Shown here: piece by piece, positions 17,390 through 38,300 of the stretch
Position numbering within the stretch: the stretch's first letter is position 1
How the letters are laid out: every line of letters begins with the position of its first letter
Origin: Bacteroidia bacterium
GTDB taxonomy: Bacteria; Bacteroidota; Bacteroidia; M30B66
DNA length: 64,000 nucleotides
Direction of reading: 5' to 3'
NCBI GenBank assembly: GCA_965279035.1
Contig: OZ257142.1
Span: 2,144,001 to 2,208,000 of the forward strand
Notes under the pieces: model-generated
Database searches by the model: none
The model's input: only the letters and a program-made list of their open reading frames with translations
What the model was told of the DNA's origin: nothing
Position numbers and translations under genes: made by a program

Positions 17390-17412
17390 GCGATTATCCT
17401 TTGAATTTGTTG

Positions 17413-17443
17413 TTGAATACAAGAACAGAATCAGGTACTTTTG
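17413..17443 (+). promoter_or_regulatory. Bacteroidota promoter (-33 TTG / -7 TACTTTTG) for the GWxTD operon
   Basis: TACTTTTG at 17436-17443, TTG at 17413-17415 (20-bp spacer), ATG at 17458. Confidence 0.55.
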
Positions 17444-17457
17444 TATAAATACTAATT

Positions 17458-18930: not shown

Positions 18931-19790
18931 AATTTTCATACTATTTGCTCCGAGGAGGCGGCTTTTTGATCGCACAAATACCGCTTTTTTTGTTGTATCC
19001 TCTTTCAAATTTTCTTGCTTGGTTTACTCGTGTAATAGTAGGCTATCGTAAAGAGGTTGTTATGGTAAACCTCAAAACATCATTCCCTGAAAAGAGCGAA
19101 AAAGAATTAATAGAAATAGCCAAAGATTTTTATCTGAATTTTACAGATATCATGGTTGAATCATTTAAAATGCTCAGTTTGAATCCGAAACTAATTCCTT
19201 CAAGAGTGAAACTTATTAACCCAGAACTCTTAAATAAATATAAAGAAGAAGGAAAGAGTATTTTAGCAGTATCAGGGCATTATGGGAATTGGGAATGGAT
19301 GGGTGTTGGTTTGAAAGCTGTAATGGGCATGCGTTCACTTGTTACATACAAACCGCTTTCAAGTGAGTTGATGGATCGTTTAATGAAAGAAATTCGTCAA
19401 CTCAATGGTTCGGAATTAATCTCAATGCAACAAACGTTTCGTTCGATTGCCTCATCAAAAGTACCAGTCATTTCTTTACTTGTAGCCGATCAAGCTCCAC
19501 ATCCTGAAAATGCTTATTGGACAACTTTTCTTCTTCAGGATACTCCGGTTTTTATGGGAGCAGAACGAATAGCCAAATCGACAGGCCATGTTGTTGTTTT
19601 TTTAGCCATGCGACGAGTTAAGAGGGGGCATTATACATTGGAATTACAAGAATTGACTGAGAATCCTAAATCAGAACCTGAATTTAAAATTACCGAAATG
19701 CATCTTCGTGCATTAGAAAGACTTATTATTGAACAACCGGGCAATTGGCTTTGGTCGCATAAACGCTGGAAACATAAACGTCCTGAATGA
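18927..19790 (+). CDS. Lipid A / lysophospholipid acyltransferase (LpxL/HtrB family)
   Basis: YRKEVVMVNL..SFPE, GHYGNWE (HX4E), LVADQ, P..WLWSHKRWK. 4-bp overlap with the upstream gene. Confidence 0.9.
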   Translation: MKFSYYLLRGGGFLIAQIPLFLLYPLSNFLAWFTRVIVGYRKEVVMVNLKTSFPEKSEKELIEIAKDFYLNFTDIMVESFKMLSLNPKLIPSRVKLINPELLNKYKEEGKSILAVSGHYGNWEWMGVGLKAVMGMRSLVTYKPLSSELMDRLMKEIRQLNGSELISMQQTFRSIASSKVPVISLLVADQAPHPENAYWTTFLLQDTPVFMGAERIAKSTGHVVVFLAMRRVKRGHYTLELQELTENPKSEPEFKITEMHLRALERLIIEQPGNWLWSHKRWKHKRPE

Positions 19791-20803
19791 AAACGGCTGT
19801 TGTTATTCTTAATTGGAATGGAAAGCACCTGTTGGAACAGTTTCTACCCAAAGTAATTGCTTGTTCTCCCAATGCAGAAATTGTAGTAGCCGATAATGCT
19901 TCTACAGATCATTCTGTTTCATTTGTTAGAACTACTTTTCCAAGTGTTACTATTATTGAAAATCCAAGTAATAATGGATATGCAGGTGGATATAATGAAG
20001 CATTATCTCAAGTAGTTGCCGATTATTATGTATTGTTAAATTCCGATATAGAAGTTACTCCACATTGGATAGAGCCAGTTATAAATCAATTTGAGGGCGA
20101 TAATCTCATAGCTGCAATTCAACCTAAAATTAGAGCTTTCAAACACAGAGATCAATTTGAATATGCAGGAGCTGCAGGTGGTTATCTTGATCGTTTGGGT
20201 TTTCCATTTTGTCGTGGTCGAATTTTCGAAGAATGCGAGATTGATAATGGGCAATATGATGATGCACGTGAAGTTTTTTGGGCATCAGGTGCTTGCATGT
20301 TTGTAAGAGCCTCTGTTTTCCATGAGTGTGAAGGATTTGATGAGTTGTTTTTTGCTCATATGGAAGAAATTGATTTGTGTTGGAGGATGAAGAATAGAGG
20401 CTATAAAATTATGGTTGAGCCTTCTTCTGTAGTTTTCCATATTGGTGGTGGTACACTTTCAAAATCGAATTGGCGAAAGACCTATCTTAATTTCAGAAAT
20501 AACCTTGAATTAATTTATAAGAATATTGAAGATAAATACCTTTTCCGAAGTTTATTTATGCGTATGACATTGGATGGAATTGCAGCATTTAAATTCCTTT
20601 TTACTAATGGCTTTAGTCACTTTTATGCAATTATACGAGCACATTTGCATTTTTATAGAAAGTTACCTTCTATACGCCAAAAACGAAGAAAATTAAAAGC
20701 TCTCGAACGCAATAGAAATAGCACCGGCGTTTATATGGGATCGATTGTAGCCGATTATTTTGTTAGAGGAAAAAAGACGTTTACTGACCTCGACATCCAT
20801 TAA
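19787..20803 (+). CDS. Glycosyltransferase family 2
   Basis: VVILNWNG, ADNASTD, GYAGGYN, LLNSD, WASGAC, FFAHMEEIDLCWR. 4-bp overlap with the upstream gene. Confidence 0.93.
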   Translation: MKTAVVILNWNGKHLLEQFLPKVIACSPNAEIVVADNASTDHSVSFVRTTFPSVTIIENPSNNGYAGGYNEALSQVVADYYVLLNSDIEVTPHWIEPVINQFEGDNLIAAIQPKIRAFKHRDQFEYAGAAGGYLDRLGFPFCRGRIFEECEIDNGQYDDAREVFWASGACMFVRASVFHECEGFDELFFAHMEEIDLCWRMKNRGYKIMVEPSSVVFHIGGGTLSKSNWRKTYLNFRNNLELIYKNIEDKYLFRSLFMRMTLDGIAAFKFLFTNGFSHFYAIIRAHLHFYRKLPSIRQKRRKLKALERNRNSTGVYMGSIVADYFVRGKKTFTDLDIH

Positions 20804-20819
20804 GCCATGTTCATTTGGG

Positions 20820-20827
20820 TACCTTTG
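20820..20827 (+). promoter_or_regulatory. Bacteroidota -7 promoter element for marC
   Basis: TACCTTTG matches TAnnTTTG, 21 bp before the ATG at 20849. Confidence 0.45.
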
Positions 20828-20848
20828 TAATTCCCAATCCATTTGACC

Positions 20849-21415
20849 ATGTTTAATTTGGAAGAAATTATAACCATTACAGTTACTCTTTTTGCTATTA
20901 TCGATGTTGTTGGAGCAGTTCCCGTTCTCATTTCAATGAAAAGCCGTTTAGGTGAAATTGATTCTGGTAAGGCAACTATTGCTTCGGGAGTTTTAATGAT
21001 TTTGTTTCTCATTTTCGGGACAAAACTTCTCGAAATATTAGGAGTTGATATTAATTCTTTTGCAGTAGCTGGCTCGATTGTCATCTTCATCATGGGATTG
21101 GAAATGGTTTTGGGAATTGAATTATTTCGCCAAGATCCCGATGTAAAATCAGGAAGTATCATTCCCATTGCATTTCCAATTATAGCAGGCTCCGGAACAT
21201 TAACAACTGTTATGTCATTAAGAGCTAATTTCAGTGTTTACAATATTCTTATTGGAATTTTAATCAATTTAATTGCTGTTTATATCGTATTAAGATCCAT
21301 CAATTTTCTTGAACGTAAACTTGGAAAAAGTGGACTCTTTGTAATCCGTAAATTTTTTGGAGTCATCCTCTTAGCTATTGCAATTAAAATCTTTAAAGCC
21401 AATATTTCGATATAA
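20849..21415 (+). CDS. MarC family integral membrane protein
   Basis: LFAIIDVVGAVP, SFAVAGSIV, IIPIAFPIIAGSG, FGVILLAIA; about 6 TM segments. Confidence 0.92.
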   Translation: MFNLEEIITITVTLFAIIDVVGAVPVLISMKSRLGEIDSGKATIASGVLMILFLIFGTKLLEILGVDINSFAVAGSIVIFIMGLEMVLGIELFRQDPDVKSGSIIPIAFPIIAGSGTLTTVMSLRANFSVYNILIGILINLIAVYIVLRSINFLERKLGKSGLFVIRKFFGVILLAIAIKIFKANISI

Positions 21416-21490
21416 AAATTTAACTGAATTTCTGATTTGATTTTAAAGAAATTCAAGTATCAAAATTCTTCATAATTAATTCGATATTTT

Positions 21491-23446
21491 TTAATCTCCC
21501 AATAGTTGACTACATATATAATCACTTAGTGCGAGAATACTAATCATTGGGTTTACTCCACTGCAGCGAGGGAAAACACTTGCATCTATCACATACAATC
21601 CATTTATTCCCCAGACTTTTCCTTCAGGATTTACAACATCGTGGACATACGAATTTCCCATTCTACAGGTACCCATTTGATGAGCGCTGAATAATGTAAA
21701 ATCTCCTTTTTTCCAGCGCAGATGTTGAACAATTTCATTGAATTTATTCTCGTCCTTTATTATTTCTGTTGGAATATAGGTTGGAATACTATGAGGTAAG
21801 GCGATTTCAATTGCTCCTGCAGCAGCATGAATTCGAGCAGCATTCATCATTCCATGCATCAATGTTGATTGATCACTTGGATGCAAATTATAATGAATGA
21901 TTGGTCTTCCATCTCTACTTAGTTTGATTTCACCACCAAACTGATCACGACTCAACACGATAAAAACACCTAAATTTTGAATTTGTGACATACGTTTTTG
22001 GAACGAAGTAGCATCTTTCCAAGGCATTCCTAAAGCCAATAAACCGGGATGTGGAGGCGGTGTTTCTATTTTGTAGCCATAACGACCATTCAGTCGAATA
22101 TATTGGTCATTTGTACTCGTCATCATAGCTCCAGTCCATGCTTCGATCGTTTCATTATAAATTGCTGAAACTGGAACAACGGGATGTAAGTAGAGATTTT
22201 TTCCGAGTTGTGGGTGACGAATTCCACTTCGGAGCAATAGGGCAGGAGAATGAATACTTCCAGCCGATACTATTACTTGTTCAGCTTCGATGCGCACTTG
22301 TATTTGTTTTCCATCCACATCTGTATGAATTCCAAATGCACCTTGAATAGTATTTCCATTGAAAATTAAACGTTCAATAGAAGTTCGATCAAGAATTCTC
22401 GCTCCATGATCGGATGCATCTTGAATGAAAGTTTTTAAACTACTTTGTTTGCTTCCTTGTTTACAACCGAATCCACACCAACCACAGCGATATGCATTAT
22501 CATGATTGCAATGTGAGCTATTCTTGGCAATTTCATTTACTTTCTGCCCAAGCGCTTTGCTACCCGAAATTAAATGTTGGTTATTTCGATTATGAATGAT
22601 TCTTTCTGAACCAGCTCCGACACGATCCCACACACTTTGCAGATGTTTTTGAAAAATCGGTTTAACAAAATCTTCAATTCCACTTTCTTCCGCCCATTCT
22701 TCCAAAACAAAGTCAGGCGTTTTGATACACGCTTGCCAATTTATGGTTGTTCCACCACCTAAACAGGAACCTGCAAAAACAGTCATTGCCCCGTCTGACG
22801 AACTCAATGCTCCACGTTCTTCATAGAGTTGACTCACCATTTCCGCTTCAAGATTGCTCATGGAAGATTCGGGAATCCAAGGACCTTTTTCAACAATTAT
22901 AACCTCTTTTCCCGCTTTTGCAAATCTTGAAGCTGCAACACCACCGCCAGCTCCAGAGCCAATAATTAAAACTTCGCAACGGATGTTAGTACCTAGTTTT
23001 AGAAAGTGAAATGGTTGTTTTGAAGAGATTTCACTTTCTGGTTTAGGAGCTCCGGAATACTGTGTTATTGACTTTGAGAAGCTATTTCCTAATTCATCCG
23101 TTTGTGAAAAGGCAATGAATGAACAGAGTTTTTTTAATGCTTGATATCCTTTGCGTAATAAAGGAAAGCGTGATTGTGACCAAGATTGAAATAATGTTTC
23201 GCGTTGTGATTTGTTTAATTTTAAAAAGGAACATAATGGCCCATTCCAAGTGAAACCAAGAAAAGGTGATTCAAGAAGAGTAAGAAGCTGTTTGAAGTCG
23301 GCTTGTTCTTCGGGCGATTTTTCATCGATAACCAAAGCAATCCGATTGGCAATTTCGGGGATATTGAAAATTGATTTTTCTGTTGAAACTTCAACAAATA
23401 TTTCGACTACATCGATTAACAGCGACTTATGTTTCTCGTTTAGCAA
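21491..23446 (-). CDS. GMC family oxidoreductase, long-chain fatty alcohol oxidase-like
   Basis: IIGSGAGGG FAD motif, GSCLGGGTTINW, CGWCGFGC, SAGSIHSPALLLRSG, HP, SAHQMGTCRMG, DASVFP..SGVNP. TTG start 4 bp after the folA stop. Confidence 0.9.
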   Translation of the reverse strand: MLNEKHKSLLIDVVEIFVEVSTEKSIFNIPEIANRIALVIDEKSPEEQADFKQLLTLLESPFLGFTWNGPLCSFLKLNKSQRETLFQSWSQSRFPLLRKGYQALKKLCSFIAFSQTDELGNSFSKSITQYSGAPKPESEISSKQPFHFLKLGTNIRCEVLIIGSGAGGGVAASRFAKAGKEVIIVEKGPWIPESSMSNLEAEMVSQLYEERGALSSSDGAMTVFAGSCLGGGTTINWQACIKTPDFVLEEWAEESGIEDFVKPIFQKHLQSVWDRVGAGSERIIHNRNNQHLISGSKALGQKVNEIAKNSSHCNHDNAYRCGWCGFGCKQGSKQSSLKTFIQDASDHGARILDRTSIERLIFNGNTIQGAFGIHTDVDGKQIQVRIEAEQVIVSAGSIHSPALLLRSGIRHPQLGKNLYLHPVVPVSAIYNETIEAWTGAMMTSTNDQYIRLNGRYGYKIETPPPHPGLLALGMPWKDATSFQKRMSQIQNLGVFIVLSRDQFGGEIKLSRDGRPIIHYNLHPSDQSTLMHGMMNAARIHAAAGAIEIALPHSIPTYIPTEIIKDENKFNEIVQHLRWKKGDFTLFSAHQMGTCRMGNSYVHDVVNPEGKVWGINGLYVIDASVFPRCSGVNPMISILALSDYICSQLLGD

Positions 23447-23450
23447 GATT

Positions 23451-23939
23451 TTATTGTTTCCTTTCTAGCATTTGAAATGTGAGTGAGTATACATTCAAAT
23501 CATCTGCTGGATAAGCTATGTCAACATGAATATTCCAATCATCCGAATCTATCTCAGGAAAATAACGATCAGCTTCTGGTTCAATATCTACACGAGTGAT
23601 ATAAATCCGATGAGCTAATGGGAGTGCTTGTTTATACACATCAGCTCCTCCAATCACCATCACTTCAGGTTGATCTTTAACTAGATTGATTGCTTCTTCG
23701 AGCGAATGAACAACATCAACACCATTGGCTTTGTAATCGCTTTGACGGGTGATGATAATATTTCTTCGGTTAGGGAGTGCTTTTCCAATGCTTTCGAACG
23801 TATGGCGTCCCATAATAATAGGATGCCCAGTGGTAAGATTTTTAAAATATTTTAAATCGGCAGGTAGATGCCACAGAAGTCGATTGTCTTTTCCAATTTC
23901 CCCATTTTTTCCGGTTGCAACTACTATAGATAATATCAT
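23451..23939 (-). CDS. folA: Dihydrofolate reductase
   Basis: [53 protein letters not shown]. Confidence 0.97.
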
Positions 23940-24730
23940 ATGGCAACAGCGGCTTTAATAGCAGGATGAGGATCATAGCCTTCCAAAGTAAAATCGTCAA
24001 ATGTAAAATCGAACAATTCTTTAATTTCAGGATTCAGTATCATTTCAGGAAGAGGACGAGGTTCTCTACTAAGTTGTAAACGAGCTTGATCGAGGTGATT
24101 ATTATATAAATGAACATCGCCAAACGTATGAACAAACTCGCCAGGTTTTAAACCACAAACTTGAGCAACCATCAATGTGAGTAAAGCATAGGAAGCTATA
24201 TTGAATGGAACACCAAGAAATGTATCCGCGCTACGTTGATAAAGTTGGCAACTCAATTTCCCTTCGGCCACATAAAATTGAAAAAAACAATGACAAGGAG
24301 GAAGTGCCATTTGATCTACATCGGCAACATTCCAAGCGCTCACAATGAGTCGGCGGGAATCTGGATTTGTTCGAATCATATGAATGAGCTTACTTATTTG
24401 GTCTATTGTTTCTCCATTTTTCCCAGGCCAAGAACGCCATTGATGTCCGTAAACTGGACCTAGGTTTCCATTTTCATCGGCCCATTCATCCCAAATACTA
24501 ACGCCATTTTGTTTGAGATAATCAATGTTTGTATCTCCTTTTAAAAACCAAAGCAATTCATGGATAATTGAACGGAGGTGAACCTTTTTAGTAGTGACTA
24601 GAGGAAATCCTTTATTTAAATCGAAACGCATTTGATATCCGAAGCAACTGATTGTTCCGGTTCCAGTGCGATCGTGCTTTTGGGCTCCATTTTCCAAAAT
24701 ATGAGCTAATAAGGCTTGATACTGCTGCAT
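23936..24730 (-). CDS. thyA: Thymidylate synthase
   Basis: [67 protein letters not shown]. Confidence 0.98.
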
Positions 24731-24749
24731 AGAATTATGTTAGGCTTTG

Positions 24750-24757
24750 CAAAGTTA
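24750..24757 (-). promoter_or_regulatory. Bacteroidota -7 promoter element for thyA-folA
   Basis: Minus-strand TAACTTTG, 19 bp upstream of the thyA ATG. Confidence 0.5.
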
Positions 24758-24899
24758 AACTTCATTTAGGCTTTTGTTTTTGAAGATTTTGGGAATCGAT
24801 TCTTATTTATCAACGGTGATTGTTTAGAACACATGTAAAATGAATCTATCTGTTTATGAAGCAGAAAGGGCTTAATTAACTTTTTTTTGGCATAAGAAG

Positions 24900-24929
24900 T
24901 TGGAGTGAATAAAAAAATAGATACTTTTG
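24900..24929 (+). promoter_or_regulatory. Bacteroidota promoter for tRNA-Asp
   Basis: TTG at 24900-24902 and TACTTTTG at 24922-24929 (19-bp spacer). Confidence 0.6.
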
Positions 24930-24954
24930 CCATCCCTGAACAAATATTACCAAT

Positions 24955-25028
24955 GGATCGGTAGTTCAGCTGGTTAGAATGCCGCCCTGTCACGGCGGAG
25001 GTCGCGGGTTCGAGTCCCGTCCGGTCCG
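24955..25028 (+). tRNA. tRNA-Asp (GTC), CCA not encoded
   Basis: Acceptor stem GGATCGG/CCGGTCC, D-arm TAGTTCAGCTGGTTAGAAT, anticodon arm CCGCC-CTGTCAC-GGCGG, T-arm GCGGG-TTCGAGT-CCCGT, discriminator G. Confidence 0.97.
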
Positions 25029-25029
25029 C

Positions 25030-25061
25030 AAAGCCCCGAAATATACTCGGGGCTTTTTTTT
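25030..25061 (+). terminator. Rho-independent terminator after tRNA-Asp
   Basis: AAGCCCCGA / TCGGGGCTT stem followed by a T8 run. Confidence 0.85.
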
Positions 25062-25588
25062 GTCTTCATTTTCAAGTTCAATTATGTGAGTTTTTGATTC
25101 CTTTTTTAAAGATCTCTTTCATAAACGTACATCGAATCGGGTATAGGTATTTATTAAATAAAAAGCCAAAACTTCATTTTAAAGTCAACAATACAATTTA
25201 AGGTTTCAAAGACTATGATAACATTAAGTTATAGCTATAATTACAATAATAGAATCAGAAGATTTATATACTAAAAGACAGCTTTTTTTAACTAGTTTCT
25301 AAAAAATCATTTCATGAAAAATAAGAGAACATTTTTTCACTAAACAAGAATTGTATTATATCAAAATAGATTCAGTATATGAAATAAGATTCCCATTATC
25401 ATTATGAAATGTTAAGAAATTTCCAAAATCATTTTATGATTAATGTTTTCAGTTTTATTTCAATATATACAATTGAATTTTGGAGAATTTAATTCTCAAT
25501 TTGGCATCTTATTATTTTTCCAAATTTTTAAAACACTCTTTATAAAATAGGAATGACATTCAAATAGATTATTTGCTATTTTGAACAA

Positions 25589-27520
25589 ATGAAAAAGCTT
25601 CATTTTTTAATATTCTATTTGCTTGTTTATGGGCATTTTTCTTTTGGGCAACATTTTGAATGGGCTTCTTCAGGAAGTAATATGTTAGTTGGATATTCTT
25701 CTAGTTGCATAACAACAGATGGAAGATTGATTGCTGGGGCACAGTATGAACCACCTAGTTTTCAAATCTCAGAGGATGAAGCTGAAATTTATTCAGGAAG
25801 TGGTAAAGCATTTTCATTTAATAAATATTTGAGTCAGTTTATTGTTACTTGTTATTCTGCTCAAGGGGACATAGAATGGATAATAAAAAACAATGATTTA
25901 TGTTCGAATGGGAGTATTTTGGGTTTAAGTTCATTGGCAGATGGAACTGTTATAGTTGCTTTTAAAGGATTTCCCAACTCTCCAGTTTATATTATGGATG
26001 AAAATGGAGTTGAAAAAGGGCTTCATTTTAGTAATTATTCAAACTCAGAGGTCAATTATTTGGATTATGTTTTTCTTGCTGAGATTGATAAATATGGTTC
26101 ATCACGAAAAATTCATGCAATTAAAGGGATTATTAATACTGAATGGAATAGTTTTGAAAGCACGCCTGATGGAGGATTTATTTTATCTCAGACGCATTAT
26201 GAAAAATCAATGAATGCAAAGGGTGAAAATAAAGATGTAGCACATAATTATATTACTAAAATTAGTTCCGATTTCCGATTTTCATGGGTGTATAAACTAA
26301 AGTACTTAGATAAATCTTGTTGTTCATTTTTTGAAAATCCTTCATTAGCAGTTTCTTCAGAAAATGGAGAAGTTTATATTTCTGGGAATTTCAGGGAAGG
26401 AATTTTACCCGATGGAGGAAAAGCTCATACAGCACCTATATTGGATGTAGTTTCTCAATACAATCAACCTTATGAATCGTATATAGCTTGTTTAAGTGCT
26501 GATGGTAAATTGAAATGGATTCGTTATTCTGAAGGCAAATCATTAATAAGTGCCATTTCGGTTCGAAATAATCAATTATTGGTTGGAGGGAAAATACAAT
26601 TGCAAAAGAATTATTTTGGGATGAAGATCGATACATCCAATGCGAAAATTGCCTTTCTCGCTTCTTTTGATTTATCGGGAAAATCAAATTGGTGTCAAAC
26701 ATTTAATGCTATTAATATTACTTCTATTAGCCAGGATTTTGATGGGAATATTTATGCTTCATTTAGGAACAAACGGAGTAGGGGAGTTCCTCCATTAATT
26801 ATTGGTCGTGATTCTATTCCTGATGCCTATGAACGAGTAATTGTGGCTAGTTTTGATGAGAATGGAAAATACCGATGGAATAAAATGAGTGGGGCTATGT
26901 TATCCATTGATTCTCATTCGAAGATTCATAATGACGAATGTGGAAACCTCTATTTTACAGGTGAAATGTGGTATTCACTTCCTGTAAACATGAGTATTTT
27001 TGATGGAGCTATTGTAAGGGGAAAAGGCTATGGTGGAGCTCCATTGGCGGCAAGAATTCGAACTACTATTCCTGATGAATTGTTAGCATTAAATCTGAAT
27101 TTATCTCAAACCATTTCTATTCCTGGTCGTGAGAAAAAAGAGAAAACCTCCAATATAAGTAACAAGAATTCGGGAATAAATGTCGATACTGTTCACTTAG
27201 TGATTCCCAATGTAAAGCCCGATTCAGTTCATTTAAGTAGGTGTGTTCCTATACCATTCCCTTGGACTTTGGTATTATTCCCTAATCCTACAGATGGTCA
27301 ATTTACAGCAAGAGCTACACTATCCTATTGTGATTCTCATGTTAGTTTAGAATTATGGGATGCAAAAGGAGCTTTCATAAAACAATTATCATCTCCACAC
27401 ATGCAGTTGGCTGGTAGTTTCGATATAGATTGTGTAATAAATGATTTAGCTGCAGGTTTATACATTGTTGTTTTAAAGGGTTCTGGTTCTGCTATTAGTG
27501 AACGTTTGGTGAAAAAATAG
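25589..27520 (+). CDS. T9SS type A sorting domain protein with beta-propeller (SBBP-like) repeats
   Basis: Signal peptide, repeated 'D/S..G..kW' blade motifs, C-terminal LFPNPTDGQF...LAAGLYIVVL...SERLVKK. Confidence 0.8.
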   Translation: MKKLHFLIFYLLVYGHFSFGQHFEWASSGSNMLVGYSSSCITTDGRLIAGAQYEPPSFQISEDEAEIYSGSGKAFSFNKYLSQFIVTCYSAQGDIEWIIKNNDLCSNGSILGLSSLADGTVIVAFKGFPNSPVYIMDENGVEKGLHFSNYSNSEVNYLDYVFLAEIDKYGSSRKIHAIKGIINTEWNSFESTPDGGFILSQTHYEKSMNAKGENKDVAHNYITKISSDFRFSWVYKLKYLDKSCCSFFENPSLAVSSENGEVYISGNFREGILPDGGKAHTAPILDVVSQYNQPYESYIACLSADGKLKWIRYSEGKSLISAISVRNNQLLVGGKIQLQKNYFGMKIDTSNAKIAFLASFDLSGKSNWCQTFNAINITSISQDFDGNIYASFRNKRSRGVPPLIIGRDSIPDAYERVIVASFDENGKYRWNKMSGAMLSIDSHSKIHNDECGNLYFTGEMWYSLPVNMSIFDGAIVRGKGYGGAPLAARIRTTIPDELLALNLNLSQTISIPGREKKEKTSNISNKNSGINVDTVHLVIPNVKPDSVHLSRCVPIPFPWTLVLFPNPTDGQFTARATLSYCDSHVSLELWDAKGAFIKQLSSPHMQLAGSFDIDCVINDLAAGLYIVVLKGSGSAISERLVKK

Positions 27521-27604
27521 TTAGATTCAAATCGTTCAATTCACATTATCTTAATATTGTTTTTTAAATTTTTCTTTGCATATTCACTAATTAATTTTCT
27601 GAAT

Positions 27605-28033
27605 ATGAAAAAGTTACCTTTATTGCTCATTTCTCTTTTTATCATCTCTATTTCAAGTGCACAAAAAATAGCCTTGAAAAATGTTCCTCAAGTGATACAA
27701 ACGTCATTTCAAACTCAATTCCCTAAAGCAGATGACACTAAATGGGAAAAGGAAGGTCTGAATTTCGAGGCAGAATTTGAATTGGATGAAAAAGAAATAT
27801 CTGCTTTGTTTGATCCACAAGGGATTTTAATTGAAACGGAAGTTGAGATTCCCTTGTTGGAGTTGCATACTGGAATATTAGAATTTGTAGAAATAAACTA
27901 TTCAGGACAAAAAATTAAGGAAGCTGCGAAAATTACAAAGGCTGATGGGACTTATACCTATGAAGCCGAAATCAGAGGAATGAATCTCATTTTTGATTCT
28001 AACGGAGTTTTTATTAAAGAAGTAAGAGACTAA
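27605..28033 (+). CDS. PepSY-like (BLIP-like fold) periplasmic protein
   Basis: Signal peptide, VPQVIQTSFQTQFP, WEKE, FEAEF, ALFDPQG and a second YEAEI...FDSNG repeat. ATG at 27605 preferred. Confidence 0.85.
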   Translation: MKKLPLLLISLFIISISSAQKIALKNVPQVIQTSFQTQFPKADDTKWEKEGLNFEAEFELDEKEISALFDPQGILIETEVEIPLLELHTGILEFVEINYSGQKIKEAAKITKADGTYTYEAEIRGMNLIFDSNGVFIKEVRD

Positions 28034-28624
28034 AATTCCATTATTTTTTATTTCAGGAACAAAGATGGAATGAAATGGATTTTTAGATTTTTATACAGTA
28101 GATTTTATTGATATTCGGATATGTAAATTCGTTGCTATATTAATAAGAAGAATGACTTATGAGATAAATAAATTTGAAGGTCAATGCAGGAAATATGAGG
28201 GATACATTAAAAACATGACATTGAACATTCAAAATGGTTATGTAATTTTCGTGAAGATGTATTATCAAATACAGAATTAAGCTTGAATAATGATACAATT
28301 ATCTATGTCAAGCTTTCAGATTGAATGAAATTTTATAAAATTCATGGAAATAAATCTAGTTTTTGTTGACTTGAGACTCACCCTGCATTTATTCACCTGT
28401 TCTACTTTGTTGGTTAATGTTATTTTTTAATCTAATTTCATGTAATTACTTTGTTTGTTTATGATTTAGACAGAAATAGCATTAGTAGTATTGATTAATA
28501 CTCGTTATTATTTCATTAATGTAATTGAATGAAATTACATAGATAAATAAATTATAATTACTCTAAAGTAAATTAATTATTTATTCAATATTGTTGTTTT
28601 GTTCCTAATTGTAATATTTAAGAT

Positions 28625-29015
28625 ACCCGTTGTGCGGTTAAAAATTTGAATTATCCTTCAACAATATTTAACGCTTACCACATTAATCAATACTTATGTA
28701 ATGCCTTTAAATTAAATTATTTAAAATTAATATTAGGTTTAGAAACGGATCAGTGTGGAGGCTATGTCTGGGCGGCGAGGGTGTGTTTCGACATAGATGA
28801 GAAAAAAGCTTATACGAGCACAATGGTCGAAAAAAGGCCTTGAGCGTAAGCAGCATCGTCCAGACTTGACCTTCTTTGATTACTTTCTTGTGTCAAGACA
28901 AGAATTAATACGTCGTAGACAAACATGAATGATATAGTGACAAGAAGCATTAACAGCCTTATTTCATTGATTGATATGAAAAAAGATAAATTGATAATTC
29001 AACCGCACAACGGGT
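28625..29015. mobile_element. Non-autonomous MITE-like element (~390 bp) with IS982-like ACCC ends
   Basis: Perfect 15-bp TIR ACCCGTTGTGCGGTT (28625-28639; reverse complement at 29001-29015), flanked by direct repeat TTAAGAT (28618-28624 and 29016-29022). Alternative parse: 14-bp TIR with 9-bp TSD TTTAAGATA. No transposase inside. Confidence 0.85.
28766..28909 (+). ncRNA. Candidate structured RNA (multibranch domain plus pseudoknotted hairpin) inside the MITE
   Basis: P1 28766-28775/28856-28865 (10 bp, 2 G-U). P2 TTTCGAC 28786-28792/GTCGAAA 28826-28832. Hairpin GCTT-ATAC-GAGC 28808-28819. GC-GTAA-GC GNRA hairpin 28844-28851. Stem TTCTTGT/ACAAGAA whose loop GTCAAG (28892-28897) is complementary to CTTGAC (28865-28870). 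Confidence 0.55.
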
Positions 29016-29341
29016 TTAAGATATATATTAATTAGGGTAATTATATTTATTAATTCATATAACCCTAATTAATTTATAAAGGAGATTTAGCTATAATTCA
29101 TTCTATAGAAAACACATGATCAGTTTTCAAAATAAAAAAAATCAAAGTCATTTGGCTATAAATTCTATTCATATTATATTTACAATCCCTAACCTTAACC
29201 TAATTTGTCCATGCTCTATTCTGTACGAGGAAGTTAATTTCAACTCTCTTCTCATTCCTTTCGAAGGATAATATCCTCATTGACGCTTCGCGTTTGTGAC
29301 ATTTCCTATTCATTCCCAACCCACCCGAAACATCCTAAAAG

Positions 29342-32300
29342 ATGAATTTCAGATACCTCTTGTTAGTACCTGCGATACTACTTAGTTTCATCGCCAAATC
29401 ACAATCGAATGCCCTAAATTTTGGAGGAGGTAGCGATTTTGTGAATATTAATCCCATGATTCCCTATTCGGGTGATTTTACCTTGGAAACATGGTTTAAT
29501 ACATCAGATCCCAATACAACATTTTTTGCATGGGGCGGTCCTGGAGTCAACAATTACCTCAATTTTGGATTAAATACCGGTAAACCTCGTTTAGCAATTG
29601 GTAATGGTACCTTTATTACCCAATTGGATGGTATTGGTAATTGGAATGATGGTATATGGCATCACCTTGCAGTTACTAAAACAGCATCTACGGTTTTGTT
29701 TTATGTAGATGGTTTAGCATCGGGTAGTGGTGTCGTTACTAATTCAGCTGGAGCTTATTCTTATTCAAGCATCGGGGCGGGATTATTTAATAATCTCATG
29801 CAAGGCTTTGCTCCACTAAGTATTGATGAGTTGAAAATTTGGAATGTTGCGAAATCCGCCGTTTACATTTCATCAAATTACAATTGTAACCTAGTAGCAC
29901 CACAACCCAATCTTGTTGCTTATTACACATTTAATCAAGGAATTGCGAATGGTTCTAACATCGGAATAAACACTCTTCTTGATCAAAGCGGGAATAACCG
30001 AAATGGACTTCTAAATAATTTTACTTTAACAGGATCATCCTCGAACTGGGTAAATTCAGGAGCTATTCCACCTACAGGATTCTATCGAACTGTTGCCTCA
30101 GGTAATTGGAGAAATCCTGCTATATGGGAAACAAAAAATGGTAACTGTTGGGTTCCTGCTATTCAATTCCCTGATTTCCATGCTCAAGACATTGAAGTTT
30201 CATCTGGACATACCATTCAAGTCGATTCAGTTATTCAAATAGATCAAACAACAATTCTTTCTGGTGCAACTGTAATCATTGGTATTGCTGGTAATCTAGA
30301 GGTGAAAAATGGTTTTGGGGCAGATTTAACGATTGAAGGAACTCTAAACATCTCTAATGGATTGTTCACTCAAAATACGAGTTCTAACACGATTATATCA
30401 AATAGTGGAATATGCAATTTTGCTCAAGGAACAATGGGCGGTTCAGGTAACATTGATATCAGTAGTGGCACATTTAATATTATTGGCACTAGTCCTAAAA
30501 ACTTCTCTGGAGTTAATACGATATCCAATTTTGGCTTAATTAATTGGGCTACAGGCGCTGGAAACATTACCTTTTCTGGCGGTAATATTACTCTAGTTAA
30601 TAATGGAAACTTCACTATTTCCACTGCTTCTCAGTTGTTCAACAATGGAAATCCAACATCCACTTTCCAAATTCAAAATGCAGGTACACTTACGAAAAAT
30701 AATACAGGTTCTTGCATCTTTGGGGATGGAGTTACGGTAAGCAATACCAATCAAATTCAATTAAATAATGGGAAAATTGAATTTTCAAATGCATCATTTA
30801 TCAATGCAGGTTCTATTAATTGGAATGCTTCAACAACAATTAAAACTACAAATTCAACAGTAGAAATAAACGCTGGGACAAACATCATTGGTGACGGAAA
30901 ATTTGAATTAAATACATCTACAATCAGCATGAGTTCATTGTTAGAAATGCCTACAGGTTCTAGCATTGATATGAATTCTGGAACATGGAATGGTGAGGGT
31001 ACCATTCGAATGCTTGCTAACAGTATTTTTAGTTGGTATGGCGGTAATTTAAGTGGAGCCATCACCACCGAATTACAATCCAATTCAACCATGTTTATTT
31101 ATAGCAATGTGGAACTAACCGAAAATCACGCTATTCAAAATCATGGAACACTTGTATTCGTAGGAGATGCTTCTATTGATTTTCCTGGAGATGCTAGTCA
31201 AGTTACAATTGATAACTACAACAATCTAAACCTAACTACAACGGGAAATATCATAGCCAGTTCAGGAACATTAAATCGACTTACGTTAACCAATAAATCG
31301 GGTGGTGTTATAACTAAATCATCTGGTACAACAGAGTTGGGAGCACAAGTCAAATTTTTCAATGAAGCTGGTTCACAATTAACGATCAATGGAGGAATAC
31401 TAAATATTCAATCACTTGAAAAACTCTTTGAAGGAAATATTCAAGTGAATGAATTTGGATTTCTTGGTGGATCATCTGCAATTGAATTTAAAGGTCAATT
31501 CCTTACCAATTCTGGACATGTTAATTTCCCTGATTTTATCTTTAATGGTGAAATTCAACAAGTAATTAATGGAACCTCACAAGGAGCATTTTCGAATTTG
31601 AGCATCAACAATGGTTTGGATGTGATTTTAGATAATGATATTTTCATCGATAATAATTTAAATCTAATCAGCGGGTTTCTTCGTGGACCTTCTAAAACTG
31701 TTACAGCCGGAACTTTTGCAGATATTCTAAATGGTTCGGTAAATAGTTATTTAGATGCAAAACTCATTCGTGGTTTTGACATTCAACCTACTCAGTTTTT
31801 CCCGATCGGTAGCTCATCAGGTTATACTCCTGTTTCCATCGAAGTTTTTGGGGCTGAAGAAGGTGTTTCAATTATGGCTCAAGCAACTGGAACGGATCAT
31901 CCAGATGCTGCCAATTCAGGATTACAAAGTCAAAAATCAATCAATAGTTATTGGAATATAAATTCGGTTGGTAGCAGCTATGATCATTTGGATGTAACAT
32001 TCAACTACAACTTGCCTCAAATTGATTTACTAGCTAATCCGATAAACTTTCAAGTGGCCCAATACAGCAATTTAGTTTGGCAAAATTTGAATTTGGGAAC
32101 GATTACTCAAAACTCAATTCAAGCACTGAATGTAACAACTTCGGGAGAGTTCTATGTGGCTGAAGGAAGTTCTCCATTACAAGGTGCTGCACTTAATTTC
32201 TCTGGTTATACGAATATTGTTCAAGGTCCTGATCAACTCATTCCGAATTCAAGTAATCCCTATTCTGTATCAATATGGGCTCGAACTGATCAAGTTGTTC

Positions 32301-35300
32301 CTGGAGTATTTAGCACCTTTATTTCTCAAGGACGTAAATTCTATCTTGGTTACGATCAATATGGAAAGATTCGAGTTGGTGATGATTGGTTGACTACTGT
32401 TCCTTTTCCTACGGATGGATTGTGGCATAATTACTTGGTTGTTCGAAATACAAATTCAACTGAATTGTATATCGACGGCGCTTTAGCTGCATCAATCGAT
32501 TATTCTATATCTAATCCAGAACCTGTAAATGATGATCCGGTTGCTAGATTTTATATTGGTGGACAATGGTTTGGACCAAGTGTAGAAAATTGGCAAGGTG
32601 ATATTGATGAGTTATTAGTGTGGAATCGTCCTTTATGTGCAAATGAAATTGCAGATCGTTATCATTGTGAAGTTTCATTTGGACTACCTGGACTTATAGC
32701 AGCTTATAATTTCAATGAGGGAATTGCCAATGGTTCTAATGCTAATGTTGTTCAAGTTCCAGATCATTCGGGAAATAACAATAACGCCACCTTGATCAAT
32801 TTTGCACTTGAAGGAAACAGCTCAAACTGGGTTCCAGTTGGTGGAGTTTTTTCGGGAGAAAACTGTTCCGGCATGGAATCGATTATGATCTATCGTGATG
32901 CGGATAACGATGGCTTTGGTAATTTCAATAATTTCATGTGGATTAATGGTGCATGTACTATTCCATATGGATATACTTACGATTACGATGATTGTGATGA
33001 TGAGAATTCGAATGTCAACCCTAACGCTGTGGAATTCTGTGATGGTATTGATAATAATTGTTCAGGGACTGCTGATGAAAACAATGCATTATCGTTTGAT
33101 GGAGCGAATGATTACGTAACCATTCCAGAATTCAGCATCGGATCAAATCCTTTCACTATCGAATTCTGGACACGCCCTGAATTATGGCCTAATAATGAAG
33201 CTTATTTAGTAAGCAACCGAACTTTCGAATTCGATAATGTGGGGAATTGGTACCGAATCAGTATGTTATCTACTGGTCATATTGGTGTTGAATTCGGATT
33301 GTCAAATCAAGCTGTTGGGTTGAATTTGATTTCTTCTTCTATCGTACCTGTTGGTATGTGGAGCCATATTGCATTGAAACGCGATGCTCAAAATAAAGTA
33401 AGCTTATTCATCAACGGAAATCCAGAAGGTACAATCAACGATTTAGCTCGTAACTTCAGTTCATTAGATCATAACGTATGGATTGGAAGCTGGGGAGCAA
33501 TAAATCTTGCTTTTTATAATGGAACCATTGACGATTTACGATATTGGAACATAGCCCGAACAGACTTAGAAATTCGAAGTAACCAAGTAGCTAATTTTGC
33601 TCAAGTTGATGGTTTACTGAGGAATTATACTTTCAACCAAGGCGGAGCAGGTGGTGAAAATGGTGCAGTTACAACTCTGATTGATTTAGTGAATAATGAA
33701 AATGGTAGTCTAAACAATTTTGCATTAAGTAGTGATGTTTCTGGAAGTAATTGGGTAGGTTCATATTCGACAGTTGTTTATCCAGATATAGATGGCGATG
33801 GTTATGGAGATGAAGCGAATTACATCGAAGTTAATTCTGCTTGTCAGGTTCCTTTAAATTACATTTCCTATGGTCATGATTGTGATGATCAAAATTCTGC
33901 AGTGAATCCTGATGCAACTGAAATTGCAAACGGAATTGATGATAATTGTAATGATCAAATAGATGAAAACATCGCTTGTAATATCAGCCTTTCTGGGGCA
34001 AGTGGTGACAGTCTTATCGTTTGTTTAGAGAATAATCAAAATACAGGAAATGTTCATTTAGTAGTTTCTGGAGGAGCGGCACCTTATACATTCAGTGGTG
34101 CTGATACATTGAATTTAACTTCGGGTGTTTACCAATATCAAGTAATTGATGCGAATGGTTGTCAAGCAAACACCTCGGTTGAAGTCATTGTTACACATTG
34201 TATCATTCCATATTATCAACCACCTGTAAACGATACCATCAGTAATCTCATTGGTTCTGAACTTACACAGTTATTCTATTATCCTGAAAGCTTTGCTGAT
34301 TCGACAACTGCTAATGAGATTTTCCTAATCAGTGATGTGGAAGGTGAAGTATTGATTGAAATTATCGCCAATAACGGACAATACGATGCCCTTCTTGCTT
34401 TATTGCAAACTCCTGCATACGGCTTACACGATACGATCGACAATGGTGATAGTACATTAATCATTAGTGGTTTATTTCCAATAGCCAATTTGATCAAACT
34501 CGATTCACTTCCCGAACTCATCAACTACGTTCGTCCTTACTATTCACCTATCAATGGAAATTTTGCTTCTACTGGTTTGACTAAAACTCAAGGAGATTTG
34601 GTGATGGGTGGAGTAGATGCTAAAAACGGATGGGAAGTTTCGGGGCAAGGAGTAAAAGTGGGTGTTTTATCGGATAGTTATAATACTAAAACAGGTAATA
34701 AAGCTGCCTTAGATGTAATAAATGGTGATTTACCGGGAACAGGAAATCCCAATTATATTCAACCAGTTGTTGTAACGGGAGAATATAATTTTGGTCGCGC
34801 TTCGGATGAAGGACGAGCCATGTTGCAAATCATTCACGATGTAGCTCCCAATGCTGAATTATACTTCCGTACCGGATTTATTTCACCTGGTAACTTTGCT
34901 GAAGGAATCAAGGAATTAGCTGATTCGGGTTGTAAAGTGATTGTTGATGACATCACCTACATTACCGAACCTTATTATCAAGATGGGGTAATTGCTCAAG
35001 CGGTTGAACAAGTTTCTTCTTTAGGTGTGAATTACTTTACTTCTGCAGGAAATTTCGGATCTCAATCATATGAAGGAGTTTTTACTCAAACTACAGCACC
35101 ATCTGGATACACCGGACTAGCTCATAATTATGGAGGGGGAGATGTATATCAAAGCATTACACTTGAAAAAGGAACTTATACTATTGCGCTCCAATGGGAA
35201 GATGAATTCTATTCTTTAGGCCAATCCAATGGTGCACAAAACGACCTCGATATTTATTTGGTTGATCAGTTCGGTAATCGTTTATTTGGTTTCAACCGAA

Positions 35301-38300
35301 ATAATTTGGGAGGTGATCCACTTGAAATACTTCCTTTTGTTGTCAAGGCAACTATTGATGCAAACTTGATTGTGACTCGTAAATCAGGTTCTGGTAATGT
35401 GAAATTTAAATACATAGTATTTAGAGGTAATCTCAAATTTAATGAACATGAACAAGGAACATCCACTGTCGTTGCTCAAGCCAATGCAGCAAGTGCTATG
35501 TCGGTAGGTGCGGTTCTTTATAGCAATACTCCTTCATATGGTGTAAATCCACCAACACCTGCTAGTTTTTCTTCACGTGGTGGATTATTAATCAATGGAA
35601 TTGATCGTCAGAAACCAGATTTCTGTGCACCGAATGGTGTTAACACGACCGTTAATTTTGGTGGAGTAAATATCGATGGTGATGCTTTCCCTAATTTCTT
35701 CGGAACATCTGCAGCTGCTCCACATGCGGCTGGTGCTGCAGCTTTGATTCAGGAAGCGACCATGCGATTTGATTCTATTCATCTTTCTGGTTCGGAAATG
35801 AAAGCAGTTCTAAAATCATCCGCTTTAGATATGGTATCACCTGGCTATGATGTTGCTTCTGGTAGTGGTTTTATTCGTGTAAGTAATGCCCTACAACAAT
35901 TTGCCAATCCTCGTCCAGACTTGCAGTCTATTGAATTATCGGATTCTACTTTGACTCCTGGAGAAGATCCTATCTCAGTTATTTTCAAAGGTAATTATTT
36001 CAATCCCAACGCCAGTATCATTTTCCAATACGATACTATTCCAGTTCAATTCCTAAGTGATTCGCAATTAGTTGCTCAGATTCCCCAATTTGTTGGAAAT
36101 CCTCCAATAACCATTTACAATCCTGCTATCTCAAATAATGGGAACGATGGTGGTATAAGCGATTCGCTTTATTTTTTCGGAAATATTCCACTTAATGTGG
36201 TTGTGAAAGTGAATGATGCTGTGAAACTCTATGGGGAAAAAATACCTGCATATGAAGTAGCAATTTCCGTTAATAATCAACCTTTAGCTTCCACCGGTTT
36301 ATCGCTCGAACAATTAGGATTAGATGATTTAACATTTAGTTCTTCGTCAACTAATCTTTCCAATGTTGGATTGTATTACCGCCGTGCACATTCCAATGTG
36401 ACTGATTTAAGTTTGTTTTCAAGTCAGCAATTGGCTCAATTATACAACTACCAGTTTATTGATGGATTGCTGACTATTAATCGCATGCCACTTCAAGTTA
36501 CACCGCGCGATACAAGTTTAGTTTACGGTGCATCTATCAACGGAAAAGCAATTGGTTTTCATTACGAGTATGATCATACGAATGTAGATCCGATGGATCA
36601 AAGTGTTTTGCTTGATTCAATTGAAACTACACATCAATCAACAATTTCTCGAAGTGTAATTTTGGTAGATGGCCGTCGCGCTGTGAATGGTCGAATCTTA
36701 ACTGATTCAGATTTGTTAAACATGAGTTTCCTTGCGAGTGGACGAGTTTCTGATAATGCCTTGTCTGTTTCAAATGGACGTCGAGCTGTGAACGGAATTA
36801 CATTCGATACCACATCCTTTGTTCCTCTTGCTTCAGAAGCCATTTTCGATTACCAAATTGATGATGCAAATTCAACGATTTACAATGCTATCTCTCTGGC
36901 GAATGGTCGACGAGCTGTAAATGGTATTGCGGCTGCCAATGGTCGTAGAGCAGTAAATGGAGAAGTATTGATAAATGGTCGACGTGCAGTAAATGGACGT
37001 CGTGCTGTGAATGGTCGACGTGCTGTTAATAGCAGCACATTCAACGAAAACAGTAACGATAATGCAGTTGTATTGCTCGATTCTCTTGATGCAGAAGATT
37101 CGGATGGTGATAATACAGTAGCGAACGATTCCATTGTTGGATATACTTCCATGAACCTCATTACAGGAGTTACAGTTGGAAACTGGCTTATTGCTCCAGG
37201 TGTTTTGATGTCCGAAAACTTTACGATTTCATACGGATTAGGTCATTTAACAATTACTCCAGAAACACTTGAGGTAAAAGCAAACAATCAGGTTAAAACG
37301 TGTTCTTCGGGAATGCCAACGTTTACATCTGTCCAAGAGATATATCAATATGAACAAGCCGACAGTACTGTTATTGCTAGCGGTCCCGACTTTTCTTTAG
37401 TGAACAATGCAGGTGAAATTGTTTTACCAGCCAATTTGGTTGCTGGAACATATCAGATTGTACCAAGTAATGTGGTATTGATCGATTCCATGGCGAATTA
37501 TCAGCTTGTCTATATTCCAGGAACACTTACGGTAAGTGATGGTCCGAATGCAAAAGCTACAGAAGGACAAATAAGCTGCTTTGGTGGAACTACAACAGTA
37601 AACGTCACAGCAACTGGAGGTACAGCTCCATATACTGGAACAGGTTTGAAAACGGTTTCAGCTGGAGTATATAGTTTTACAGTGACTGATGCGAATGGTT
37701 GTACTTCAGTAGTGAGTGGAAACATCAGCCAACCAACAGCCTTGCAAGCATCGGGTGTAGCTGGAACCATTGCATGCTTTGGCGGAACAACAACGGTAAA
37801 TGTTACTGCTACAGGTGGAACTGCACCATACACGGGAACGGGATTAAAAACTGTTTCAGTTGGAGCGTATAGTTTCACTGTGACTGATGCGAATGGATGT
37901 ACTTCGGTTGTGAGTGGAAACATCAGCCAACCAACAGCATTACAAGCATCAGGCGTAGCTGGAACCATTGCATGCTTTGGCGGAACTACAACTGTTAGTG
38001 TTACTGCAACAGGTGGAACAGCACCATACACAGGAACAGGATTGAAAACGGTTTCGGCTGGAGCGTATAGTTTTACAGTGACTGATGCCAATGGATGTAC
38101 TTCGGTTGCGAGTGGAAACATCAGCCAACCAACGGCATTACAAGCATCAGGCGTAGCCGGAACTATTGCTTGCTATGGCGGAACAACAACTGTTAACATA
38201 ACAGCAACGGGCGGAACAGCACCATACACGGGAACTGGTTTGAAAACGGTTTCAGCTGGAGCATATAGTTTCACCGTGACAGATGCTCGCGGATGTACTT

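Follow-up and report, generated by a model that had tools for sequence, protein, structure and literature searches.

The 64,000-nt window analysed here (positions 2,144,001 to 2,208,000 of the forward strand of contig OZ257142.1, Bacteroidia bacterium assembly GCA_965279035.1) contains, within a 1.3-kb intergenic region and 327 nt 5' of the start codon of a giant open reading frame (ORF), a single copy, slightly decayed, of a non-autonomous DNA transposon of 389 bp (a MITE, or miniature inverted-repeat transposable element) at 28626-29014. Its extent follows from terminal inverted repeats (TIRs) flanked by the direct 9-mer TTTAAGATA, a target-site duplication (TSD). The element occurs once in the window, where the TIR written with an ambiguous 15th base matches twice (0.49 matches expected). 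Its GC-rich core, 28766-28909, had been described in a first-pass annotation as a structured noncoding RNA carried by a mobile element. Comparison with relatives strongly supports the view that this core belongs to a family of units that fold as single strands and are spread across the Bacteroidota. In each unit a closing helix or rod (P1), whose content varies, would lead directly into a conserved module, where CUUGAY would pair with RUCAAG, the hexaloop of an A/U-rich hairpin (P3) of 12-14 bp; the core may be a noncoding RNA.

In isolate run X1 (Logan contigs), depth on the flanks was 509 and the five bins over the MITE summed to 16,182-34,488, which is 32-68 times a single copy; summed contig depth is not copy number, and we take it to represent tens of copies. 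Depth over the MITE was also raised in three metagenome runs of other studies (X5 and X9 among them), and two metagenome contigs, L067 and L068, carry copies that are 94.6 and 94.4% identical over 392 nt at an unrelated site, with identity collapsing exactly beyond the TIRs. A metagenome pattern scan for the MITE returned three stretches, two of them true copies and one in coding sequence. The sole internal ORF (28646-28843, 65 aa) had no match in a Pfam search, and no transposase gene lies inside the element. Thus, the TIRs, the duplication, the many copies at different sites and the lack of an internal transposase gene identify a MITE, in agreement with the mobility proposed in the first-pass annotation on the basis of the window. 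A parent insertion sequence (IS) with the same TIRs was not seen among the loci examined; it would be bounded by ACCCGTTGTGCGGTT and encode a transposase, and the 9-bp duplication is presumably compatible with the IS4, IS5/IS903, IS982, IS1 and IS256 families. No MITE copy was present among the 4 and 33 stretches from pattern scans of viral contigs, BLAST against plasmids and phages gave zero matches, none of 41 loci around PepSY-like homologues carries it, and BLAST did not find the full-length element in 401 sampled Bacteroidota genomes. The genome collection contains no close relative of the host, the closest matches being 54% identical for the PepSY-like protein and 57% for GlpK.

The core forms a GC island in an otherwise AT-rich element, as had been noticed (0.48 in 28750-28849 versus 0.15-0.28 in 28450-28749), and RNAfold returned a nested structure in which every stem proposed earlier is present. 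The + strand of the window copy folds at -39.7 kcal/mol (z -1.89, 7/200 shuffles equally good) versus -23.8 kcal/mol for the - strand (z +0.89, 165/200 shuffles equally good), and three G.U pairs of P1 become C.A on the opposite strand, bearing out the suggested preference for the + strand. Taken by itself, the window copy thus exceeds chance by no more than a small margin. The L067 copy, in which the terminal hairpin is intact, reaches -48.5 kcal/mol on the element strand (z -4.37, 0/200 shuffles as good) and -32.1 kcal/mol on the other strand (z -1.42, 19/200 shuffles as good). Window and L067 copies differ at 3 positions in the 147-nt core and at 18 in the remaining 242 nt; for the internal arm and P1 of the window, comparison extends to only 3 near-identical copies. 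The hairpin downstream of P1 was found where it had been described, except that its stem, 12-13 bp in intact copies, is incomplete here: the outer five pairs are gone (AATTAAT versus AAAGTAAT in L067) and seven remain, and the window copy may be inactive.

The conserved order of the module begins with CTTGAY (a) and the T-rich linker L1, continues through a pyrimidine arm (b) to the loop RTCAAG (a') and closes with a purine arm (b'). The exact complementarity of CUUGAC and the loop GUCAAG, first noted in the window, is accompanied by covariation in the relatives. In an alignment of 40 distinct modules (A1), 96.4% of the cells were paired, compared with 80.2 +/- 0.8% in shuffles (0/500 as high) and with 42-52% when the partners were slid; both sides change in 10 of the 12 pairs of the P3 stem, and pseudoknot pair 16-42 is UA in 24 modules, CG in 16 and unpaired in none. 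The search pattern behind A1 fixed 5/6 of the pseudoknot pairs and limited the sixth to Y/R, and the script demanded at least 7 apical hairpin pairs. Among 65 distinct modules found by a covariance model without the pattern, the pair is T-A in 44, C-G in 18, T.G in 1 and degenerate in 2, and C.A in none. The T-A and C-G variants are both present in modules of a single genome that are identical in all other respects, which speaks for base pairing and against a protein half-site.

A third strand is suggested by the linker. In the window, TTCTT(T) at 28872-77 matches AAGAA(A) at 28900-05 in parallel register, with T for A and C for G, the run covering 5 positions here, where the arm is damaged, and 6 in L067. 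From the second base of the linker, the same code extends over 3-9 positions in 64 of the 65 modules (the run is 0 in one), giving a summed run length of 336 versus 249 +/- 5.4 when purine arms were swapped between modules (maximum 271 in 1000 swaps). These comparisons show that the linker covaries with the purine arm in parallel register across the family; in addition, linker length rises and falls with hairpin length, and the run ends with G opposite G in 52/65 modules. All 16 asymmetric C-containing linkers mirror the Watson-Crick arm and are not direct repeats, and a mirror repeat is the requirement of a parallel pyrimidine-motif triple helix (U.A-U, C+.G-C). An antiparallel Watson-Crick helix between linker and purine arm, which would suit U-only linkers, was rejected outside the G033-type family, with at least one mismatch in 16/16 of the asymmetric ones. 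We infer a triple helix of L1, b and b' that stacks beneath pseudoknot and P1, and comparison strongly supports the module as a putative intrastrand triplex that is locked by the pseudoknot and falls, by the scheme of Holder et al., into class IV (pyrimidine motif). The ITxF block order (Hoogsteen, pyrimidine, purine on one strand, with matching composition) is found at 28871-28909; set by hand against the limits of the ITxF search, which allows stems of 6-15 nt and loops of 1-6 nt, the triple run measures 5-6 nt in this family and up to 9 in others, and the second loop comprises the hexaloop and 2 apical pairs. In runs X1 and X9, some copies of the MITE differ at 28877-28889, between linker and hairpin arm, with loose ends starting CATGCACGCTGAGCTTGTCGAAG; this suggests a subfamily with an extra hairpin inside the module, as in the G033-type family.

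Table 1. Coordinates of the element and its structural parts in the window.
Feature	Position	Strand	Remarks
Left target-site duplication TTTAAGATA	28617-28625	.	Identical 9-mer at 29015-29023; likeness to the L067 copy stops here
MITE body	28626-29014	+	389 bp; raised depth; copies at a different site; no ORF with family match
Left TIR CCCGTTGTGCGGTT	28626-28639	+	14 bp, inverted without mismatch at 29001-29014; other copies have loose ends at 28625
P1 closing helix, 5' strands GTCTGGGCGG (28766-75) and CGAGG (28776-80)	28766-28780	+	Pair with 28856-65 (10 bp) and 28838-42 in the minimum-energy fold
Internal arm TTTCGAC (28786-92)/GTCGAAA (28826-32), inner hairpin GCTT (28808-11)/GAGC (28816-19)	28786-28832	+	RNAfold
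P1 closing helix, 3' strands CCTTG (28838-42) and TCGTCCAGAC (28856-65)	28838-28865	+	Flank the GC-GTAA-GC hairpin, 28844-51; RNAfold
Pseudoknot 5' strand CTTGAC (a)	28865-28870	+	Exact complement of the loop at 28892-97; last base covaries with first loop base
Linker L1 CTTCTTTGA	28871-28879	+	Pyrimidine; proposed Hoogsteen third strand
P3 hairpin 5' arm TTACTTTCTTGT (b)	28880-28891	+	12 bp in L067/L068; covariation in 40 modules
P3 loop GTCAAG, pseudoknot 3' strand (a')	28892-28897	+	Complement of CTTGAC
P3 3' purine arm ACAAGAA and damaged TTAAT (b')	28898-28909	+	7 pairs left in window; ACAAGAAAGTAA in L067
Right TIR	29001-29014	-	Perfect inverse of left TIR; loose ends of other copies at 29015/29018
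Right target-site duplication TTTAAGATA	29015-29023	.	Identical to left 9-mer

Relatives of the module extend well beyond this MITE. In BLAST of the MITE against the 401 sampled genomes, four matched window 28861-28904, and the pattern CTTGAYN{18,26}RTCAAGRCAA occurred in 78 of the 401, the richest holding 48, 10, 8 and 6 matches; the reversed pattern, as a control, occurred in about 45 genomes with at most 3 matches each, so that single matches are at control level. A covariance model of the hairpin (R1) detected 37 of 151 genomes at E ≤ 0.001, many with several copies, and copies per genome reach at least 35. Sphingobacterium alimentarium DSM 22362 is among the carriers. A different MITE, of about 480-560 nt with TIRs of its own (ACTGAGTATCCGC) and at least 40 copies, houses the module in genome G040, in G076 the module forms palindromic doublets and tandem units, and in other genomes solitary modules without TIRs adjoin housekeeping genes. 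The module is therefore not the private payload of one MITE, as had been supposed, but belongs to a phylum-wide family; nor do its homologs always lie within TIRs or beside a transposase, which is missing from the 25 commonest families of either set of neighbouring genes. Two solitary modules of genome G006 (L053 and L055) end 17 and 26 nt before the start codons of rhamnose-mutarotase-like and 6-phosphogluconolactonase-like genes, where the A-rich arm would sit at the site at which Bacteroidota mRNAs bind the ribosome. The 170 ORFs adjoining modules at 50 loci gave 74 and 71 Pfam families, none in more than 2 ORFs, indicating that the module is not tied to the genes of one pathway, unlike riboswitches.

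The domain upstream of the module is more variable. Sister families repeatedly show a helix with a 3' strand that reaches up to, or takes in, the C of CTTGAY, with P1 comprising 11 pairs that enclose 80 nt in the window copy, 10-13 pairs that enclose 7-32 nt in short types and 15-18 pairs that enclose 135-193 nt in long types. Relatives share the site of the GC-GTAA-GC hairpin in the form TGA-GC(loop)GC-(G)AG, in which the loop is GGA or CCCGAAGGG, and in many of them a box CTGTYTGAGC(hairpin)GCGAGTT is conserved within P1; window 28764-82 resembles this box but serves as a P1 strand. For two sister families RNAalifold gave long rod-like folds terminating at the module, in which true compensatory changes were few (2/58 and 3/86 pairs). 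On the module's strand, minority cells were 12 G.U versus 4 A.C in one sister family, and in the second 25 G.U versus 15 A.C overall and 12 versus 3 in the core rod. Past the purine arm, conservation ends at about 10 nt, in only one sister family.

Several relatives have further features at or near the module. In the G033 loci L121-L129, a second hairpin (GTACTTTTGT...ACAAAAGTAC, with a 4-nt loop or a 22-nt insert, then CAAAAGCTCCCGACAAGAATTA) is conserved about 60-110 nt past the module; it recurs 3' of most copies, and the element there is composite. In G076, two module units stand in tandem at 275 nt (L064, contig C46, and L043, contig C7), directly 5' of cas1 (Cas_Cas1, 5.6e-87) and at a contig end. 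At 1-83 of L109 (G248), on the edge of a module locus, there is a match (58.3 bits) to group II intron D1-D4-3.

As anticipated, no Rfam family could be assigned. In the 64-kb window the only match at gathering level was a tRNA elsewhere, E ≤ 10 gave three noise matches in 28400-29340, and among related loci there was no match at gathering level in 6 and no relevant one at E ≤ 0.5 in 15 more. Flavo-1 (RF01705) was considered and rejected: its best match, on the strand opposite a G076 module, scored 23.7 bits where the gathering threshold is 42, and the window MITE had no match to it at E ≤ 10. Flavo-1 is like the module family in being a repeat-like motif of Bacteroidota with an A/U-rich hairpin (CCUUUUUUGU...ACAAAAAAG) and a UAGCC...GAAGC flank that recalls the long-type relatives (PMC2864571), while its consensus is without CTTGAY/RTCAAG. 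According to the relevant part of PMC9723704, Flavo-1 matches lie sense or antisense to transcripts and many are untranscribed.

The closest published counterparts are the intrastrand triplex repeats PIT, BoxC and TMECO and the ITxF classes (Holder et al. 2015, PMC4666352, with Hoyne and Maher 2000/2002 cited there), and the earlier idea of an undescribed system was too strong, in that an intrastrand triple helix class is already in print as DNA repeats. These repeats, like the module, consist of three consecutive blocks on one strand that can fold back twice to a triple helix, and they are multi-copy, intergenic and next to unrelated genes (PMC4666352). The + strand order of the module (Hoogsteen, pyrimidine, purine) corresponds to class IV and the - strand to class II, as for TMECO, BoxC and PIT, and A/T-only triplex motifs were noted there in the Bacteroidota genome of Flexibacter litoralis (PMC4666352). 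The module is not TMECO or BoxC proper: the published consensus (CCCTCNCCC-N3-6-GGGNGAGGG-N3-GGGNGAGGG) is absent, and 28865-28909 is A/T-rich and unrelated, whereas TMECO is a G/C-rich, purine-motif, proteobacterial repeat of 37 nt (PMC4666352). The module also has a 12-14 bp hairpin that outlasts the triplex, an attached closing-helix domain and a loop-to-flank pseudoknot, a term that PMC4666352 mentions 0 times. It rides in a TIR/TSD MITE, whereas TMECO was reported not to be linked to mobile elements and mobility functions were never found with it; and A/T-rich motifs were judged there to be largely due to chance, whereas the three strands of the module covary (PMC4666352). On sequence grounds the module thus represents a variant within the known class of PIT, BoxC and TMECO, one that has an added closing-helix domain and is borne by a TIR/TSD transposon.

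Correia/NEMIS, ERIC/IRU and REP/BIME are, like the present element, small non-coding repeats that have TIRs or palindromes and lie scattered between genes; they can fold in transcripts and affect mRNA stability, their fold being a simple long hairpin. In the literature found, no pseudoknot or triple helix is described for them. Nor did we find any bacterial repeat or transposable element with a pseudoknot-locked triplex, although the family may be included in the ITxF tables, in the MITE catalogue of PMC11602168 or among the motif lists of Weinberg 2010/2017; the words triple, triplex, Bacteroidetes and repetitive are absent from the main text of Weinberg 2017. The introduction of PMC4666352 mentions structured MITEs and intergenic repeats of bacteria. 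Telomerase RNA pseudoknots and the SAM-II, SAM-V and preQ1-II riboswitches resemble the module in having two crossing helices with a U-rich loop 1 that occupies the major groove of the A-U-rich second helix as U.A-U triples (PMC6061858, PMC13541005). The module differs from the riboswitches in that it has no ligand-type conserved pocket, no association with a gene family and no Rfam match, and from triplex riboswitches and telomerase RNA in that it occurs in tens of copies per genome; its loops 2 and 3 are 0 nt, a geometry that recalls a kissing loop more than a classical H-type knot. The ENE, MALAT1 and PAN elements, as presented in a 2026 review (PMC13541005), share with the module a long U.A-U run broken by C+.G-C and an A-rich strand that is 3'-most, and plant and fungal transposon ENEs are likewise carried by transposable elements (Tycowski 2016, cited there); a role in RNA 3'-end protection is proposed for these triple helices. 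Those elements clamp a poly(A) tail or 3'-terminal A-tract between the sides of an internal loop, in eukaryotes and their viruses, whereas the module is bacterial and would have three contiguous strands locked by a pseudoknot. In the review, bacterial RNA triple helices are confined to riboswitches and group II introns, and transposon ENEs to plants and fungi (PMC13541005).

We tentatively favor the reading that the MITE-borne, pseudoknot-locked triplex unit works as a cis-acting RNA element of the + strand, for stability or insulation. The + strand would then be the active strand and the molecule RNA, with copies of the MITE read through from neighboring genes; P1, pseudoknot and triplex would stack to a compact rod that buries the A-rich 3' arm; and this rod would block exonucleases or insulate, stabilizing or delimiting transcripts in the manner of REP elements or the eukaryotic ENE/MALAT1 triple helices, an effect that could render the MITE tolerated or useful. 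RNA is favored because TIR/TSD elements do not pass through single strands, because the G.U-tolerant strand carries the RNA-capable pyrimidine motif and because solitary modules sit in what would be untranslated regions. According to the passages of PMC4666352 that bear on this point (citing its refs 42 and 43), pyrimidine-motif intrastrand triplexes form in RNA and purine-motif ones do not.

A number of observations weigh against this reading. Five of the six pseudoknot pairs are invariant, as forced by the first pattern; a fully paired 6-nt loop without connecting nucleotides is sterically demanding, and six pairs and the triplex may not coexist. P3 has no excess of G.U (6 G.U versus 9 A.C) and is damaged in the window copy. 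In the G033-type family a GC hairpin takes the place of the Watson-Crick arm, and the linker could pair antiparallel with the purine tract. The - strand of the module is a class II purine-motif triplex, the class of TMECO, and the PIT, BoxC and TMECO repeats are treated as DNA structures in PMC4666352, where TMECO showed neither promoter nor terminator activity. No exact TAnnTTTG is present within 28177-29341, and no terminator-like site in 28000-29400. Finally, orientation relative to genes is only weakly biased (47 modules, rough ORF calls): the upstream gene is on the same strand for 28 modules and on the opposite strand for 16, and the downstream gene on the same strand for 17 and on the opposite for 27, a tendency to lie 3' of a co-directional gene (28:16) and to face a convergent one (27:17).

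The published view for this class, that the fold acts in single-stranded DNA, transiently at replication, repair or uptake and with the MITE as one vehicle, is a substantial possibility that we consider nearly as likely as the RNA reading. Such a fold would stall polymerases, promote rearrangement or be recognized by a spreading nuclease or recombinase. The palindromic doublets, tandem copies and MITEs with unrelated TIRs suit it, and the conservation of CTTGAY/RTCAAG beyond the needs of pairing suggests a protein partner. Hairpin loops of the C-GNA-G type, which are stable in DNA, are present in relatives. The three-block architecture is exactly that of the intrastrand triplex, class IV on the + and class II on the - strand, and the scatter of the module in intergenic DNA near unrelated genes with weak orientation bias is as for TMECO, which is reported to be intergenic without orientation bias; yet footprinting of TMECO in vivo did not support a stable triplex (PMC4666352). 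Moreover, TIR/TSD elements move as double-stranded DNA, so that a single-stranded intermediate of transposition is not to be expected. Outside the triplex, helices accept G.U-type changes on just one strand, and that strand carries the pyrimidine motif, whose C+.G-C triples need cytosine protonation in DNA as in RNA.

REPs have RAYT partners, and Y1_Tnp genes occur in 5 of 5 module-rich genomes; none of 8 Y1_Tnp loci has a flanking module (best 17.7 bits, E 0.064, versus 43-74 bits for true modules), which leaves no Y1/HUH transposase gene flanked by modules and led us to reject the module as a REP with a RAYT. The solo Y1 (IS200-like) transposase genes of G076, G044 and G049 (L221-L228; 140-190 aa; 9, 6 and 5 matches per genome) may serve another repeat family. 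A link to DUF559 was likewise not found: such genes occur in some carriers, the domain is absent from G040 (at least 35 modules) and G152 (18), two of the richest carriers, and no module lies beside DUF559 in 8 loci.

A further explanation, which we regard as unlikely, is that the core is a relic of an untranslated region of the parent IS, either a 3' region stabilizing the transposase mRNA or a leader controlling its translation, and is functionless in the MITE copies. The module does sit close to an end of the MITE (103 nt separate it from the right TIR here, and about 75 nt in the G040 family), in some MITEs the opposite end has another, degenerate module in inverted orientation, as if one IS end had been duplicated, and copies decay, as the damaged P3 of the window illustrates; ENE-type triple helices stabilize transposon RNAs in plants and fungi, according to PMC13541005. 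In the loci examined, however, there was neither an autonomous element with these TIRs nor a module beside a transposase gene, and the solitary modules without TIRs near housekeeping genes, such as those of L053 and L055, are not expected of such a relic.

The first-pass annotation had envisaged the core as cargo in the form of a small RNA acting in trans, a ribozyme or a transposase-guide RNA, which appears improbable. The compact multi-helix fold with its GNRA loop and pseudoknot would be in keeping with it, as would TAGGTTTA at 28734-41, 24 nt 5' of P1, a near-consensus -7 box. However, no Rfam ribozyme or guide-RNA matched at E ≤ 10, there is no variable guide-like segment, no adjacent nuclease or recombinase gene and no conserved gene partner, no promoter is conserved in sister families, and a P1 content that ranges from an 8-nt loop to about 190 nt is ill-suited to a catalytic core. 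Elsewhere in the window, an exact Bacteroidota-type -7 box (TACTTTTG) lies 26 nt upstream of tRNA-Asp (GTC) at 24922-25029 and similar boxes precede the ORF starts at 4544, 12540, 17436 and 20820, indicating that this type of promoter is in use in the genome of the window. We dismiss the notion that the inverted repeats (14 bp, perfect, 361 nt apart, 327 nt 5' of the 3846-aa Laminin_G_3 ORF) are an invertible promoter switch of the giant surface protein gene with an incidental fold, since it is contradicted by the 9-bp direct duplication that flanks them and by the tens of copy-equivalents together with the unrelated site in L067/L068, and since no exact Bacteroidota -7 box lies inside the MITE on either strand and no strand-change joint was seen among the contigs of the runs, in which rare variants are dropped.

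The surroundings of the insertion have features of their own. Two giant + strand ORFs lie to its right, 29342-40882 (3846 aa), which begins with a Laminin_G_3 domain, and 51758-61471 (3237 aa). In run X5, from a related organism, the same gene pair is separated by 862 different letters versus 1091. Immediately right of the insertion site is a 20-nt inverted repeat, 29022-29041 and 29059-29078 (TATATATTAATTAGGGTAAT / ATAACCCTAATTAATTTATA, 90% complementary), and 28420-52 and 28518-50 form a further inverted pair of 33 nt that is 79% complementary; these pairs may be either other small repeats or a preferred target.

A more specific form of the RNA reading is that the module is a bacterial counterpart of ENE/MALAT1, which would bury the A-rich 3' arm, shield transcripts from 3' exonucleases and have been spread by MITEs and repeats through the Bacteroidota; by analogy with those elements this is conceivable, though we hold it doubtful. 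If true, it would give bacterial intrastrand triplex repeats a function at the level of RNA and a first defined vehicle of mobility, in a class of which the PIT, BoxC and TMECO members have been known since the 1990s and are still without a function or a known route of spreading. The presence of a triplex module with three-way covariation and a covarying pseudoknot inside a clear TIR/TSD transposon makes the questions of RNA or DNA and of movement testable in a cultured isolate. With 6-9 layers, the module would rank among the longest natural U.A-U / C+.G-C triplexes and be useful for structural work, and it merits annotation as a repeat class of the Bacteroidota.

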